A stretch of DNA of 32,091 bases from a virus (taxonomy: Duplodnaviria; Heunggongvirae; Uroviricota; Caudoviricetes): IMG/VR virus record IMGVR_UViG_2609459797_000004, positions 1 through 32,091 of that record; one strand, given 5' to 3'. Below the pieces are notes generated by a model. It was given only the letters and a program-made list of their open reading frames with translations, had not been told where the DNA came from and ran no database searches. Below, piece after piece: positions 22,935 to 27,478 of the stretch. Numbering within the stretch: the first letter of the stretch is position 1; every line of letters starts with the position of its first letter. The position numbers and the translations under genes are program-made.

Positions 22935-23651
<717 letters not shown>

Positions 23652-23682
23652 TTGTTTTATTTTTCACGTAATAGGATGATTT

Positions 23683-24024
23683 ATGACACAATTTCAACTT
23701 GCATTAATCGCTAGAGAAGTTGATGGAGAAGTCATCCATCTTCGCACCAAAGACGGATACATCAATGCCACCGCGATGTGCAAGTCTGCGGGGAAGCTAC
23801 TTGCTGACTATACACGACTAAAAACAACACAAGATTTTTTTGATGAATTATCACGCGATATGGGGATTCCCATATCGGAGTTAATTCAATCATTTAAAGG
23901 CGGAAGAGCAGAGAATCAAGGGACTTGGGTTCATCCAGACATCGCAATTAATTTAGCTCAGTGGCTATCTCCAAAATTTGCAGTGCAAGTATCGAGATGG
24001 GTGCGTGAGTGGATGTCAGGTTAA
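23683..24024 (+). CDS. KilA-N (APSES-like) domain protein, 113 aa, at the rex position
   Basis: AGGATGA ribosome-binding site; signature GYINATAMCKSAGK...DYTRLKTTQDF...GTWVHPDIAINLAQWLSPKF typical of KilA-N domains; co-oriented with cI. Confidence 0.7.
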   Translation: MTQFQLALIAREVDGEVIHLRTKDGYINATAMCKSAGKLLADYTRLKTTQDFFDELSRDMGIPISELIQSFKGGRAENQGTWVHPDIAINLAQWLSPKFAVQVSRWVREWMSG

Positions 24025-24063
24025 AGAGCGCCTGCCGAACTCCCTATCCACCTTAAGCGGTAT

Positions 24064-24442
24064 ATGACAAACCGAGGCAGAGTTCCTCATACGCACTTTT
24101 CTATGCTTAATGAACTGACGTTTAACTTGGTTGCGCCACTTGAACAGGCCGGATATACGCTGCCAGAAAAAATGGTCCCTGATATTTCAGAGGGTAGGGT
24201 TTTCTCGCAATGGCTCCGTGACAACCGGGGGGTTGAGCCGAAGACATTCCCAACATATAACCATGAGTACCCAGATGGCCGGACATTCCCGGTACGTCTA
24301 TACCCAAACGAATATTGCAGATTTCAAACAATACTTCAACGAAGTGTGGCTGCCTCAGTACGCTCCTAAATATTTTGCTGAACGAGACCAAAGGGCATTG
24401 ACGTTGATTGAGAAAATCATGCTACCTGACCTTGATTCCTAA
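24064..24442 (+). pseudogene. Interrupted coding region downstream of the KilA-N ORF (same frame to 24369, +1 frame to 24442)
   Basis: Frame-1 ORF 24064..24369 is separated from the KilA-N ORF by a single TAA. The protein-like C-terminal stretch that runs to the terminator is in the +1 frame (track ORF 24131..24442). May be a decayed gene or separate genes. Confidence 0.4.
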
Positions 24443-24450
24443 ATGTTATT

Positions 24451-24477
24451 CCCGGCCACAGAGCCGGGTTTTCTTTG
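24451..24477 (+). terminator. Intrinsic terminator after the cI-operon cargo
   Basis: CCCGGC-CACAGA-GCCGGG hairpin followed by TTTTCTTTG, 9 nt after the 24442 stop. Confidence 0.6.
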
Positions 24478-24628
24478 CCTCACGATCCCCCTCACCCAAG
24501 AACACATAACCAATTGTATCTATTTGAAAATAAATAGATACAACTCACTAAACATAGCAGTTCAGATCTCTCACCTACCAAACAATGCACCCCTGCAAAA
24601 AATAAATTCATATAAAAAACATACAGAT

Positions 24629-24690
24629 AACCATCTGCGGTGATGAATTATCTCTAGCGGTGTTGACATAAATACCACTGGCGGTGATAC
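24629..24690 (+). promoter_or_regulatory. Left operator OL3-OL2-OL1 with PL promoter, lambda type
   Basis: AACCATCTGCGGTGATG (OL3), TATCTCTAGCGGTGTTG (OL2), TACCACTGGCGGTGATA (OL1); -35 TTGACA at 24663..24668 and -10 GATACT at 24685..24690, directed toward the N gene. Confidence 0.8.
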
Positions 24691-24759
24691 TAAACACATC
24701 AGCAGGACGCACTACTCACCAGGGCGGTGAATATACAACGATTCGAATATGAATCTACG

Positions 24760-24774
24760 GCGCTGACAAAGCGC
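24760..24774 (+). promoter_or_regulatory. nutL boxB-like hairpin (P22-type GACAA loop)
   Basis: GCGCT-GACAA-AGCGC, about 75 nt downstream of the PL -10 and about 260 nt upstream of the N start. Confidence 0.5.
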
Positions 24775-25035
24775 AATAACCAAAGTGAACTTTGGGGTGT
24801 GGTGAAGCCAGCTAGTCACTGGCAAGTGCTTACCTACTGTTGAGCGGTGAAGCGCTCCCAACGCTAGCAATAGCGTGGACGAGATGGGGAGCCGCGGGCG
24901 ATAAGGCCGCCATAACGCGCACGTTGTCGCATGGAAAAATCACTGGGGTGCCGGTTATACCCCTCCGAATGAGACTCAACAAGCTGGAGCTAGACTACCA
25001 GCCACCACACCACCAAAGTTCATCAGGAGGTCTAT

Positions 25036-25419
25036 ATGACACGCAGAACTCAGTTCAAAGGCAATTCACGTTCTCGTCGTCGTGAGCGTTTAAAGGCAAA
25101 GGCATTAGCTAACGGCGTACTGGCCCGCGAAGAAGCAATAAGTTCAGAAGTATTACACCGCCCTACTCTAAGCAGAGCGCAGATTCAGGCTAAAGGTACT
25201 CACGAAACGCCTGAGCGCAAAGAAGACGCTAAGCCAATTAAGTTCATGGCACAGGACGTGATCTGGCAACAGAAAGAATACAGACGCAATCTGGAGCGAG
25301 CGGCCATTGTGTACGCGAATGAGTTTGGACATAAGCAACCAGAAACTGGTGTATGTCTTCCAAACGTAGCCATTTACGCGGCAGGCTACCGGAAATCAAA
25401 ACAACTGACAGCGAGGTAA
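25036..25419 (+). CDS. N-type transcription antiterminator, P22 gene 24-like (127 aa)
   Basis: N-terminal arginine-rich motif (RSRRRERLKAKALA); C-terminus CLPNVAIYAAGYRKSKQLTAR matches the remembered P22 gp24 C-terminus; GGAGG ribosome-binding site. Confidence 0.75.
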   Translation: MTRRTQFKGNSRSRRRERLKAKALANGVLAREEAISSEVLHRPTLSRAQIQAKGTHETPERKEDAKPIKFMAQDVIWQQKEYRRNLERAAIVYANEFGHKQPETGVCLPNVAIYAAGYRKSKQLTAR

Positions 25420-25422
25420 GTG

Positions 25423-25647
25423 ATGAATCAGACATACATTCCATCATGCTTGAGAAATCTGCCAAAGCAGAAAGCAAAGCCCCGCAAGCAAGCCATAAAG
25501 GACGCTAAGGCAGAGGTTATTGATCAAGCAATACAATTGCTCAGGGAGGAGTTAAGAAGTGGCAAGCTCGAAGGAATGATGATTCCCTATCAGCGCGGAT
25601 ATCTATCGGCGATTAGTAAGTTGGAAGTATTGAAGAGTGAATTATGA
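25423..25647 (+). CDS. Hypothetical early protein (74 aa)
   Basis: ATG 4 nt after the N stop; basic and helical; track ORF starts at the GTG at 25420. Confidence 0.4.
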   Translation: MNQTYIPSCLRNLPKQKAKPRKQAIKDAKAEVIDQAIQLLREELRSGKLEGMMIPYQRGYLSAISKLEVLKSEL

Positions 25648-26336
25648 ACTATCTGGAATTTCCGGATGGTTCATTGTTTTGGCAGCAAACCACTTATTTG
25701 AGAGGAATTAATATGTCATCAATCCGCTTAACTACGAGAATGAAAGAGGAAATCGCTCGTAACGCTTTAATTAAGTCTGGGGTTTTCACTGAACTTGAAG
25801 AAGTAACAAAGTTAAAGAACCAGCTTGCACTTGACGCCAGAGTTATTGCGTTTGGCGGTAAAAAGAAAACTGAGGAAGTGGATCAGTTATCATCCAAGTT
25901 GGTAGCTATAAGTGAAGAACTTGGAAAGATGGGATGTTCATTTTACTCATACGATGTTCGTTCTACTTCAATTTATCTGACTGTATCTGGCAGAAGGGTT
26001 GGATGGCTTTCATATGGGAAAGACGGCAACGGCGAAGATATATTGCTCCCTGCTCCGAACGAAGATAAATGCATGTTTAGCGCAGAACACGAAATAACAA
26101 AAAGGTTTGATGAAATCTGCGCATTGCAACAAAAACTTGAAGCCAAGAAAAAGGATATCGAATCAAATGTATGGGCTGCTTTGAACTCAGTCACAACAGT
26201 TAAGCGACTTATTGAGGTTTGGCCTGAAAGCAAAGAATTGCTACCAAAAGAAGCAGATAAAGCAAGTACAGCACTTCCTGCTTTACGGGTAGAAGATTTG
26301 AATAAGATGATTGGACTTCCTTCCGAGGCCGCATAG
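25644..26336 (+). CDS. Hypothetical early protein (230 aa), function unknown
   Basis: Start overlaps the upstream stop (ATGA); an alternative internal start MSSIRL at 25713 has a GAGG ribosome-binding site; ends inside a terminator hairpin. Confidence 0.45.
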   Translation: MNYLEFPDGSLFWQQTTYLRGINMSSIRLTTRMKEEIARNALIKSGVFTELEEVTKLKNQLALDARVIAFGGKKKTEEVDQLSSKLVAISEELGKMGCSFYSYDVRSTSIYLTVSGRRVGWLSYGKDGNGEDILLPAPNEDKCMFSAEHEITKRFDEICALQQKLEAKKKDIESNVWAALNSVTTVKRLIEVWPESKELLPKEADKASTALPALRVEDLNKMIGLPSEAA

Positions 26337-26350
26337 TCGGCCTTTATTTT
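26326..26350 (+). terminator. Intrinsic terminator overlapping the end of the 230-aa gene
   Basis: AGGCCG-CATAGT-CGGCCT hairpin followed by TTATTTTTGG. Confidence 0.55.
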
Positions 26351-26468
26351 TGGCATAAACAACATAATAAACACAGCACTGTGTATTCATTCCAACGAGT
26401 GAATACACGGAGCAATGTCGCTCGTAATTAAACAGGAGCAGACTTGTTCTGATTGTTGGAAATCTTCT

Positions 26469-26497
26469 TTGCCCTCCAGTGTGAGGGCAATTTTTTT
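26469..26497 (+). terminator. Intrinsic terminator immediately upstream of the next gene's ribosome-binding site
   Basis: TTGCCCTC-CAGTGT-GAGGGCAA hairpin followed by TTTTTTT; GGAGG ribosome-binding site begins 4 nt later. Confidence 0.55.
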
Positions 26498-26509
26498 GAC
26501 GGAGGATAT

Positions 26510-27478
26510 ATGAGTGAAGTAACAGATTTAGTTGTTATTGAAAAAGCAAATGCAATGACTGTATTTCAGTCTGCCGACCAGATTGAAGAAATCCTTCAAA
26601 AGGTTGAACGTGAAGTTATGTCCTTTGTGCCTGATATCACAACGGCAAAGGGCAGAAAGGAGATCGCTTCTCTGGCGTATAAAGTTGCGCAGACGAAAAC
26701 ATATCTCGATGGTCTTGGCAAAGACCTTGTGGCTGAACTGAAGGAAATTCCAAAGCTAATTGATGCCAACCGCAAGACAGTGCGTGATCGCCTTGATGAG
26801 CTGAAAGCCAAGGCGCGCCAGCCTCTTACTGATTATGAGGAAGAACAGGCGCGGATTAAAGCCGAAGAAGAAGCTAAGGCAGCAGCTGAAGCTCTCGCAA
26901 AGCAAATTGAGTCTGACCATGAAATAGCGATTTTGATGGATCGCGAATTTGACCGCCAAAGAGAAGAGGCAAGACTCAAAGCGGAGCAGGAAAAGCGAGA
27001 GCATGAAGAACGCTTAAAAAGAGAAGCTGAAGAGAAAGCCAGATCTGAAGCCGAAGCAAAGGCAAAAGCCGAAATTGAAGCAGCAGCAAGGCGAGAAGCA
27101 GAAGCTAAGGCCGCAGCGGAACGTGCAGAGCGTGAACGCATTGAAGCCGAGCAACGAGCACAGCGCGAAGAAAAAGAGGCAGCAGAACGAGCTGAAAGAG
27201 AAAAGCAGGCGGCAATTGAAGCAGAACGCAGAAAAGCACAGGAGGAGGCTGAACGAATCCGTCGCGAGGCTGAAGCAAAAGAGCAAGCCAGAATAGCAGA
27301 AGAAAAAAGAATCAAGGACGAAGAAGAGCGTAGAGCAAAGGATAAAGCTCACCGGAAAGAAGTAAATAACAAAATACTTGCTGACCTTATCAAGGTTGGC
27401 GCATCAGAAGATGTTGCTAAAAATATCATAACAGCCATCGTAAAAGGCGAAGTATTCGCAACAAAAATAACCTACTAA
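26510..27478 (+). CDS. Charged coiled-coil protein with TolA-like E/A/K/R-rich repeat region (about 322 aa)
   Basis: ATG at 26510 after a GGAGG ribosome-binding site; long central stretch of EAKA/ERAE-type repeats; track ORF starts at the upstream TTG at 26453. Confidence 0.5.
   Translation: MSEVTDLVVIEKANAMTVFQSADQIEEILQKVEREVMSFVPDITTAKGRKEIASLAYKVAQTKTYLDGLGKDLVAELKEIPKLIDANRKTVRDRLDELKAKARQPLTDYEEEQARIKAEEEAKAAAEALAKQIESDHEIAILMDREFDRQREEARLKAEQEKREHEERLKREAEEKARSEAEAKAKAEIEAAARREAEAKAAAERAERERIEAEQRAQREEKEAAERAEREKQAAIEAERRKAQEEAERIRREAEAKEQARIAEEKRIKDEEERRAKDKAHRKEVNNKILADLIKVGASEDVAKNIITAIVKGEVFATKITY

Follow-up and report, generated by a model that had tools for sequence, protein, structure and literature searches.

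A probable copy of the lambda PreS sRNA module between two early-left operon genes of a lambdoid prophage

Genes and operon layout

The window analysed here is a DNA stretch of 32,091 nt (IMG/VR record IMGVR_UViG_2609459797_000004) that represents a lambdoid prophage, and within it the spacer between a 230-aa and a 322-aa open reading frame (ORF) was examined. The plus strand carries, in this order, cI, pL, N, a 75-aa ORF, an Nmad5 gene, the spacer, a 322-aa coiled-coil gene and, later on, RecT-like and Mu Gam-like genes. The lambda-type cI repressor gene (22938-23651, plus strand) is found just upstream of a pL-type early-left promoter (TTGACA-17-GATACT, 24663-24691, plus strand; 10/12 match in a promoter scan), and all plus-strand transcription across the spacer probably starts from this promoter. 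Between pL and N, a candidate nutL boxB hairpin, GCGCTGACAAAGCGC (24760-24774, plus strand), was read directly from the sequence, and we take it to resemble a boxB of the P22 type. The N-type transcription antiterminator gene (127 aa, 25036-25419, plus strand) was assigned through its matches to PHROG 271, anti-termination protein N-like (E 5e-39), and to Pfam N_peptide (56 bits, cut-off 27.9).

The gene upstream of the spacer (230 aa, 25644-26336, plus strand) encodes an Nmad5-family protein (Pfam PF18757, E 2.5e-71), a call with which the RefSeq annotation of matching genomes agrees. Downstream, a ribosome-binding site (RBS) and the 322-aa coiled-coil gene (ATG at 26510) occupy 26501-27478 on the plus strand; the protein belongs to PHROG 1376 (E 2e-110), a family of unknown function, and is named either 'TolA' or 'coiled-coil' by RefSeq in matching genomes. 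In RefSeq only these flanking protein-coding genes are annotated, while the spacer is left blank. Small ORFs across the spacer (an in-frame TTG at 26453 and several on the minus strand) were rejected as candidates, as they overlap the terminator and the hairpin described below and are not conserved as coding sequence.

Structured elements of the spacer

The original prediction placed an intrinsic terminator at the end of the 230-aa gene, and this element was recovered (T1, 26325-26353, plus strand). It consists of a stem at 26325-26344 (GAGGCCG-CATAGT-CGGCCTT, 7 pairs, of which 5 are GC) followed by TATTTTT, in other words a GC-rich stem-loop directly before UAUUUUU. Its RNA fold has an energy of -11.0 kcal/mol (z -3.2), and it overlaps the 230-aa ORF, whose stop codon falls into the loop. 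T1 is followed by a CA-rich linker, GCATAAACAACATAATAAACACAGC (26354-26378, plus strand), which is predicted to be single-stranded, being unpaired in the centroid fold, and which is conserved in lambda and Sf6. At the other edge of the spacer lies terminator T2 (26469-26497, plus strand), a homologue of lambda tL2a with a stem of 8 pairs at 26469-26490 (TTGCCCTC-CAGTGT-GAGGGCAA), a run of seven T residues at 26491-26497 and an RNA fold of -13.2 kcal/mol (z -4.3). A second terminator shortly before the next RBS had been anticipated correctly, except for the distance between the two: the T-run ends 3 nt, and not 4 nt, before GGAGG at 26501-26505. In the Sf6 record the counterpart of T2 is labelled 'terminator, homology to phage lambda; tL2A'.

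Between the two terminators, the 9-bp inverted repeat of the original prediction, GTGTATTCA-N10-TGAATACAC, was located at 26381-26408 as the only occurrence in the window, with 0 occurrences expected (100 shuffles). The repeat is held within a larger RNA hairpin (H1, 26376-26413, plus strand), of which the contiguous 14-bp stem (26379-26392 / 26397-26410) encloses a 4-nt loop, CAAC. Positions 26379-26410 fold as plus-strand RNA at -17.7 kcal/mol (z -6.3) and, with the flanking pairs, H1 covers 26371-26418. For the plus strand of the whole 181-nt spacer a fold of -60.3 kcal/mol (z -5.4) was obtained, which none of 200 shuffles equalled. Since the spacer is kept in 2198 of 5426 complete E. coli genomes (about 40%) and in 332 phage records, this is not a chance arrangement.

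Identification of a PreS homologue

The spacer is situated in the early-left (pL) operon, in sense orientation, after N and before the recombination genes, and this position matches the setting of the lambda sRNA PreS. This RNA, described in a 2024 preprint as LPR1 and there renamed PreS, maps between ral and ea10, on the minus strand of lambda at 34011-33924; it is Hfq-enriched, has a size of ~88 nt, is processed to ~68 nt and has a 3' end that corresponds to tL2a (bioRxiv 10.1101/2024.10.31.621285). Its expression is restricted to the lytic cycle, from the first 10-min point after induction, with none in the lysogen, and it has been reported both to activate dnaN translation by opening of the RBS and to repress alaS (bioRxiv 10.1101/2024.10.31.621285). 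Deletion of the seed led to 2-fold and full deletion to 4-fold fewer plaques, in an Hfq-dependent manner, loss of PreS lowered the phage DNA level and the phage yield, and the M1 mutation (CTG to GAC) abolished dnaN activation (bioRxiv 10.1101/2024.10.31.621285).

The boundaries of lambda PreS were taken from the cloning and in-vitro-transcription primers of its authors (5' GAGCAATGTCGCTCG..., 3' ...GAGGGCGATTTTTTA). Between these boundaries an 88-nt homologue was found in the window at 26410-26497 (plus strand), which aligns without gaps to lambda PreS at 83 of 88 positions (94.3%) and is therefore an LPR1 homologue by the definition of the authors, who ask for at least 92% identity with no more than 3 gaps (bioRxiv 10.1101/2024.10.31.621285). 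The five substitutions are located at 26428, 26440, 26455 (A>G, in the seed), 26489 and 26497, and the one at 26489 strengthens the terminator stem relative to lambda. The similarity extends beyond the RNA itself: in the alignment, positions 26343-26497 differ only slightly from the intergenic region between ral and ea10 in lambda and from the Sf6 spacer. Consequently, the spacer is very probably a prophage copy of the lambda ral-ea10 intergenic module that encodes the Hfq-dependent sRNA PreS (LPR1). What the original prediction had missed is that the 88 nt that run from the repeat through T2 match a trans-acting, Hfq-dependent sRNA already known from lambda; the sRNA locus, PreS at tL2a, has been described before, is met here in a further lambdoid prophage and does not represent a novel regulatory switch. 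A search of Rfam 15 gave no match at the position of PreS.

The PreS seed in the window, TGTTCTGATTGTTGGAAA (26445-26462, plus strand), was delimited on the basis of the seed-deletion and M1 primers and is identical at 17 of 18 positions to the lambda seed, TGTTCTGATTATTGGAAA, the A>G change at 26455 being the sole difference. The CTG triplet mutated in LPR1-M1 is intact (26449-26451). The change at 26455 turns an A-U pair into a G.U pair, both in the published pairing with alaS and in the predicted pairing with dnaN. The predicted duplex with the dnaN leader (RNAduplex) is formed at the same site by both RNAs, with -28.3 kcal/mol for the window and -28.6 kcal/mol for lambda; this site spans -46 to -11 relative to the dnaN ATG and falls within the 3' end of dnaA (MG1655). 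Only 0-1 of 300-500 seed shuffles were as good on dnaN as PreS of the window or of lambda. A divergent PreS allele, with the seed GUUCUGGUUA and a different terminator (an example is IMG/VR 2636415595_000006), is predicted to retain the complementarity to dnaN.

In both the minimum free energy and the centroid fold of the 88-nt RNA, the 5' part forms a predicted stem-loop (26410-26449, plus strand) in which GAGCAAU pairs with part of the seed (CUUGUUC). The processed form of ~68 nt would, judging from its reported size, start near 26430 and thus lose this 5' stem. At the 3' end, T2 combines a GC-rich hairpin with a poly-U tail, as does the tL2a-type, Hfq-binding module in which lambda PreS ends. 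From its sequence, T2 appears to be the 3' end of PreS as well as a terminator of the operon.

The hairpin preceding PreS

With its last paired base, G26410, the 14-bp stem of H1 reaches the 5' end of PreS. To compare H1 among phages, 126 loci with the PreS 5' segment were collected from IMG/VR and reference phages, and in all 126 of them a hairpin abuts the 5' end of PreS. Two alleles with different arms were present. Most of the loci carry the sequence of the window, while the minority allele, ATAGCAGATT-loop-GAGTCTGCTAT, has an unchanged geometry and is likewise followed by GAGCAATG. The alternative allele is also designated ATAGCAGA/TCTGCTAT. In a variant with GCTCCG...CGGAGC, a mismatch and a wobble have become Watson-Crick pairs, and the fold reaches -27.8 kcal/mol. 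Across H1 and the body of PreS, just 0.15-0.4 variant cells per nucleotide were counted (49 unique sequences); the main allele is too invariant for formal covariation statistics, and for this reason the comparison of alleles was used instead. Both alleles contain U.G wobbles, at the base of the stem and near the loop, which become A.C mismatches if read on the minus strand. As these positions pair only on the plus strand, H1 is to be regarded as a hairpin in the RNA made from pL, rather than as a symmetric DNA site.

These observations bear on the possibility that the spacer is pure transcriptional punctuation, in which two insulating terminators flank a repeat that serves as the operator for a DNA-binding protein at an internal promoter. 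Such an organization agrees with the fact that both terminator hairpins fit the intrinsic-terminator pattern and that the repeat is a near-perfect palindrome, unique in the window, and the presence of two palindrome alleles at one place could reflect two DNA-binding specificities. However, a scan of 26300-26520 on either strand revealed no promoter-like site, and neither hairpin allele comes with conserved -10/-35 elements suitably spaced from the 5' end of PreS, so that an internal promoter for PreS was rejected as well. Moreover, the arms reach as far as a 4-nt loop, with U.G positions that pair only as plus-strand RNA, the lambda RNA is seen only upon derepression of pL, from the first 10-min point, and the 3' half of the element is, in lambda, a validated trans-acting sRNA. 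We therefore consider it very improbable that the spacer acts as punctuation with an operator only.

Under the favoured identification as a PreS module, H1 most likely defines or protects the processing site from which PreS is released, or stabilises the upstream mRNA fragment. We infer the role in processing, as the lambda paper is silent on how the 5' end of the 88-nt RNA arises. The full lpr1 deletion made in lambda begins right after ...TGAATACACG, so that H1 stays intact in that mutant (bioRxiv 10.1101/2024.10.31.621285). The CA tract and H1 of lambda are located at 34012-34086. With 14-18 bp, the stem of H1 is short for a classical RNase III substrate, which counts against cleavage within H1, and the literature consulted contained nothing relevant on RNase III processing sites in the pL operon. 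One locus (L134) carries H1 in the absence of PreS, and a role of H1 that is independent of PreS is therefore possible. A more far-reaching proposal is that H1 is an obligatory and so far undescribed processing or stability part of the PreS module, with at least two interchangeable alleles, and that the divergent PreS allele (GUUCUGGUUA) has co-evolved towards the same dnaN site; we put this forward tentatively, and think it more probably wrong than right.

The upstream terminator and linker

T1 is poorly conserved among PreS loci, with stem strengths ranging from -0.4 to -16.5 kcal/mol. In lambda it is weak (-4.3 kcal/mol, versus -11.0 kcal/mol in the window), and the stem shows a compensatory change from C-G to A-U in one lineage and decay in others. 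The T-run and the CA tract were found in roughly 60% of 114 PreS loci, while in about a third of the PreS loci a different upstream gene, with a GAATAA end, directly abuts H1 and the CA tract is absent. Since T1 is weak or missing in many copies, including lambda, it cannot be essential. It is plausible that T1 is a gene-end terminator, one that is passed by N-modified polymerase, and it does not belong to the constant parts of the element. Judging from these sequence comparisons, T1 and the CA-rich linker together appear to be an optional upstream module, a gene-end unit that may have been brought in with the upstream gene.

The CA tract was also considered in relation to GcvB, either as a sponge or target of the R1 seed of this sRNA (cf. 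AgvB and SroC), or as part of a GcvB mimic on the minus strand. This lead came from a relaxed Rfam search of 451 nt, in which the minus strand at 26230-26430 matched GcvB (RF00022) with 24.5 bits (E 0.0019); the match was centred on the GU-rich R1 region, with hairpins on its flanks, and on the plus strand AACAACAU and AAACAC resemble the CACAACA target consensus (PMC4104026). Nevertheless, 24.5 bits is well under the gathering score of 42, and nothing was found at the gathering threshold. The duplex between the CA tract and R1 (-29.3 kcal/mol) is not above background, since 12.5% of all 84-nt windows of the sequence reached an equal or better energy, about one in three PreS loci lacks the tract, neither a promoter nor a terminator was predicted on the minus strand, and GcvB is unmentioned in the text of the lambda RIL-seq paper (bioRxiv 10.1101/2024.10.31.621285). 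An anti-GcvB sponge resembling AgvB was rejected for this pairing result and because AgvB is located at the pR' moron site and measures 51-60 nt, and the minus-strand mimic was rejected for its sub-gathering score and for the lack of minus-strand signals. A functional link of the spacer with GcvB is, in our opinion, extremely improbable.

Distribution and module boundaries

The phages that bear the spacer include Stx1 and Stx2 phages, HK633, CUS-3 and Sf6, and in Sf6 the counterpart is annotated as 'bsq4; boundary sequence' together with the tL2A terminator. Beyond the U-tail the sequence continues in at least four unrelated ways, and several different genes occur upstream. Variation within the spacer is concentrated in the loop and lower stem of T2 and at the junction with the U-tail. 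This pattern fits the term 'boundary sequence', and a functional RNA between exchangeable gene modules explains the conservation.

It could be argued that the spacer is only a boundary sequence that promotes recombination between lambdoid modules, and that it has no RNA function in the prophage studied here. The Sf6 annotation points in this direction, as does the sharp break of homology on both sides, where at least four downstream genes and several upstream genes are joined to it. Recombination alone, on the other hand, does not account for the hairpin geometry that is preserved despite different arms, for the complementarity to dnaN that is retained by the divergent allele with a different terminator, or for the 2- and 4-fold fewer plaques that seed and full deletions in lambda give in an Hfq-dependent way. 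We judge a boundary role without any RNA function to be highly improbable. The two roles are compatible and not exclusive: as a functional RNA conserved between unrelated flanking genes, the PreS module may double as a 'boundary sequence' whose homology lets lambdoid phages recombine into mosaics.

In the EHEC prophage Sp5 a copy of the module is present, with the hairpin and the start of PreS at Sakai 1254630-1254673. The EHEC Hfq-CRAC list (Tree et al. 2014, Table S2) contains no sRNA at this Sp5 copy; EcOnc20 in Sp5 lies upstream of N, and EcOnc22 (~85 nt) maps to the Sp15 tail region (Tree et al. 2014, Table S2). The absence from this list is consistent with an expression that is restricted to the lytic cycle.

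Proposed mechanism

The function proposed for PreS of the window, including Hfq binding, lytic-only expression and processing, is transferred from lambda and should be read accordingly. In the lysogen, the cI repressor would hold pL off and no PreS would be made, as has been shown for lambda. After induction or infection, N-modified transcription from pL would read through T1 and the spacer. By analogy with lambda, the 88-nt RNA (26410-26497) would then accumulate, ending in the tL2a hairpin and the U-tail (T2), and would be trimmed to about 68 nt and bind Hfq. Its seed (26445-26462) would pair with the dnaN leader in the 3' end of dnaA, by which the dnaN RBS would be opened and the synthesis of the beta-clamp increased, and alaS would be repressed in addition, the net effect being a support of phage DNA replication.

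Regarding the origin of the RNA, a cut at the base of H1 may free PreS from the pL transcript made under N antitermination. Here H1 could act through RNase III cleavage in its stem, or by stabilising the upstream mRNA fragment at its 3' end. The trimming from 88 to 68 nt may remove the 5' stem (26410-26449), in which part of the seed is held paired. A difficulty is that, should terminators be ignored by N-modified polymerase, a 3' end could form at T2 only through partial termination or trimming.

Polymerases that pass T2 under N antitermination would express the coiled-coil, RecT and Gam genes. The original prediction had made the downstream gene dependent either on N antitermination or on a promoter controlled at the repeat. 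The former part is in agreement with the pL operon, the N gene and the homology of T2 to tL2a, taken together with established lambda biology, while the latter found no support: a sigma-70-like site was predicted on neither strand of the spacer.

The identification of PreS explains the strong conservation of an intergenic 'boundary sequence' between unrelated genes, and it predicts that the induced prophage raises the beta-clamp synthesis of its host in support of its own replication. It leaves the current understanding unchanged, with the hairpin alleles and the divergent PreS allele as small, testable additions.

Comparison with known systems

A similar organization is known from DicF, an Hfq-dependent sRNA encoded between early-operon genes (dicB operon) of the Qin prophage, which is released by RNase and acts in trans on host mRNAs. 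The targets of DicF comprise ftsZ and others, whereas those of PreS are dnaN and alaS. The spacer gave no Rfam match to DicF, and the two RNAs have no sequence relationship.

AgvB and AsxR of EHEC prophages are, like PreS, phage-encoded and Hfq-binding short RNAs with a Rho-independent terminator (PMC4104026). They differ in that they map to the late region, at the pR' 'moron' site, as primary transcripts of 51-60 nt with a conserved 3' domain of their own of ~42 nt (PMC4104026). They act by sponging host sRNAs and are unrelated to the element of the window. Membership of the latter in this group was rejected, since it lies in the pL operon, has a length of 88 nt and carries tL2a as its 3' domain.

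In phage Sf6 (GenBank AF547987), the g34-g33 spacer with bsq4 is 96% identical to the spacer of the window, and the homology stops at the flanking genes. The bsq annotation denotes a recombination joint and says nothing on an RNA product. For T2, the direct sequence homologue is lambda tL2a, which opens the tL2 cluster of the early-left operon, and both terminators are found in an operon subject to N antitermination. Traditionally, tL2a was regarded as a terminator only, and it is now also the Hfq-binding 3' module of an sRNA.

Finally, the closest counterpart is lambda PreS itself, which differs from the window copy in that it is flanked by ral and ea10 instead of the Nmad5 and coiled-coil genes, and in that T1 is stronger in the window. 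The position in the pL operon, the length of 88 nt, the tL2a-type terminator, the hairpin immediately 5' of the RNA and the predicted pairing with dnaN are common to both.

The PreS seed and its relation to host dnaA

The PreS homologue of the window (26410-26497, plus strand; seed 26445-26462) contains a stretch, 26436-26468, that resembles an antisense copy of the final ~35 nt of dnaA in E. coli MG1655 (locus L123), the 3' end in which the dnaN leader, the predicted host target site of this sRNA, is located. Because the seed region is nearly antisense to the dnaA 3' end (CAAAGAAGATTT...AATCAGAACA), the sequence suggests that PreS may have originated through capture of host sequence.

Variants of the hairpin and PreS module

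Four IMG/VR loci (L126, L129, L132 and L136) carry a divergent PreS-like allele 3' of the same H1 hairpin (26376-26413, plus strand, in the window), with GAGCAATATCGCTCG as its 5' segment, GTTCTGGTTA(A/T)... as its seed and a different terminator, GCCGCTC...GGGCGGC followed by a T-run. This allele is predicted to pair with the same site in the dnaN leader at -25.3 and -26.7 kcal/mol, values reached by 2-3 of 300 shuffles. H1 can also occur as a module separate from PreS, since a further IMG/VR locus (L134) has the hairpin without the sRNA: there, GGAGCAAT is directly followed by the ribosome-binding site and ATG of a different gene.

The same hairpin and the 5' start of PreS were found in Sp5, the Stx2 prophage of E. 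coli O157:H7 Sakai (NC_002695.2, 1254630-1254673; L125), downstream of the Sp5 N gene. The Hfq-CRAC sRNA list of Tree et al. 2014 has no entry at this position, which is consistent with expression only after induction.

On the minus strand, 26230-26430 gave a full-length but weak alignment to the Rfam GcvB model, whose 24.5 bits fall short of the gathering score (42). This identity was rejected as a compositional coincidence, arising because the GU-rich complement of the CA-rich linker (26354-26378) is flanked by two hairpin complements.

The Nmad5 gene start and the immunity region

A 14-pair hairpin followed by TGTTTTGG (25644-25674) overlaps the stop of a 75-aa ORF and lies exactly at the Nmad5 start codon; it may act as a tL1-like terminator or in translational coupling. 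The region at 22938-25419 is a mosaic immunity region: it combines a lambda-type cI and pL with an N protein, probably of the 933W/H-19B type, and a boxB-like hairpin (24760-24774), presumably P22-type. In lambda, rexAB is located between cI and pL, whereas the window has there a KilA-N/BstA-N-terminal-like ORF of 113 aa (23683-24024) and, beyond it, a set of short, overlapping ORFs (24064-24442) resembling gene remnants.
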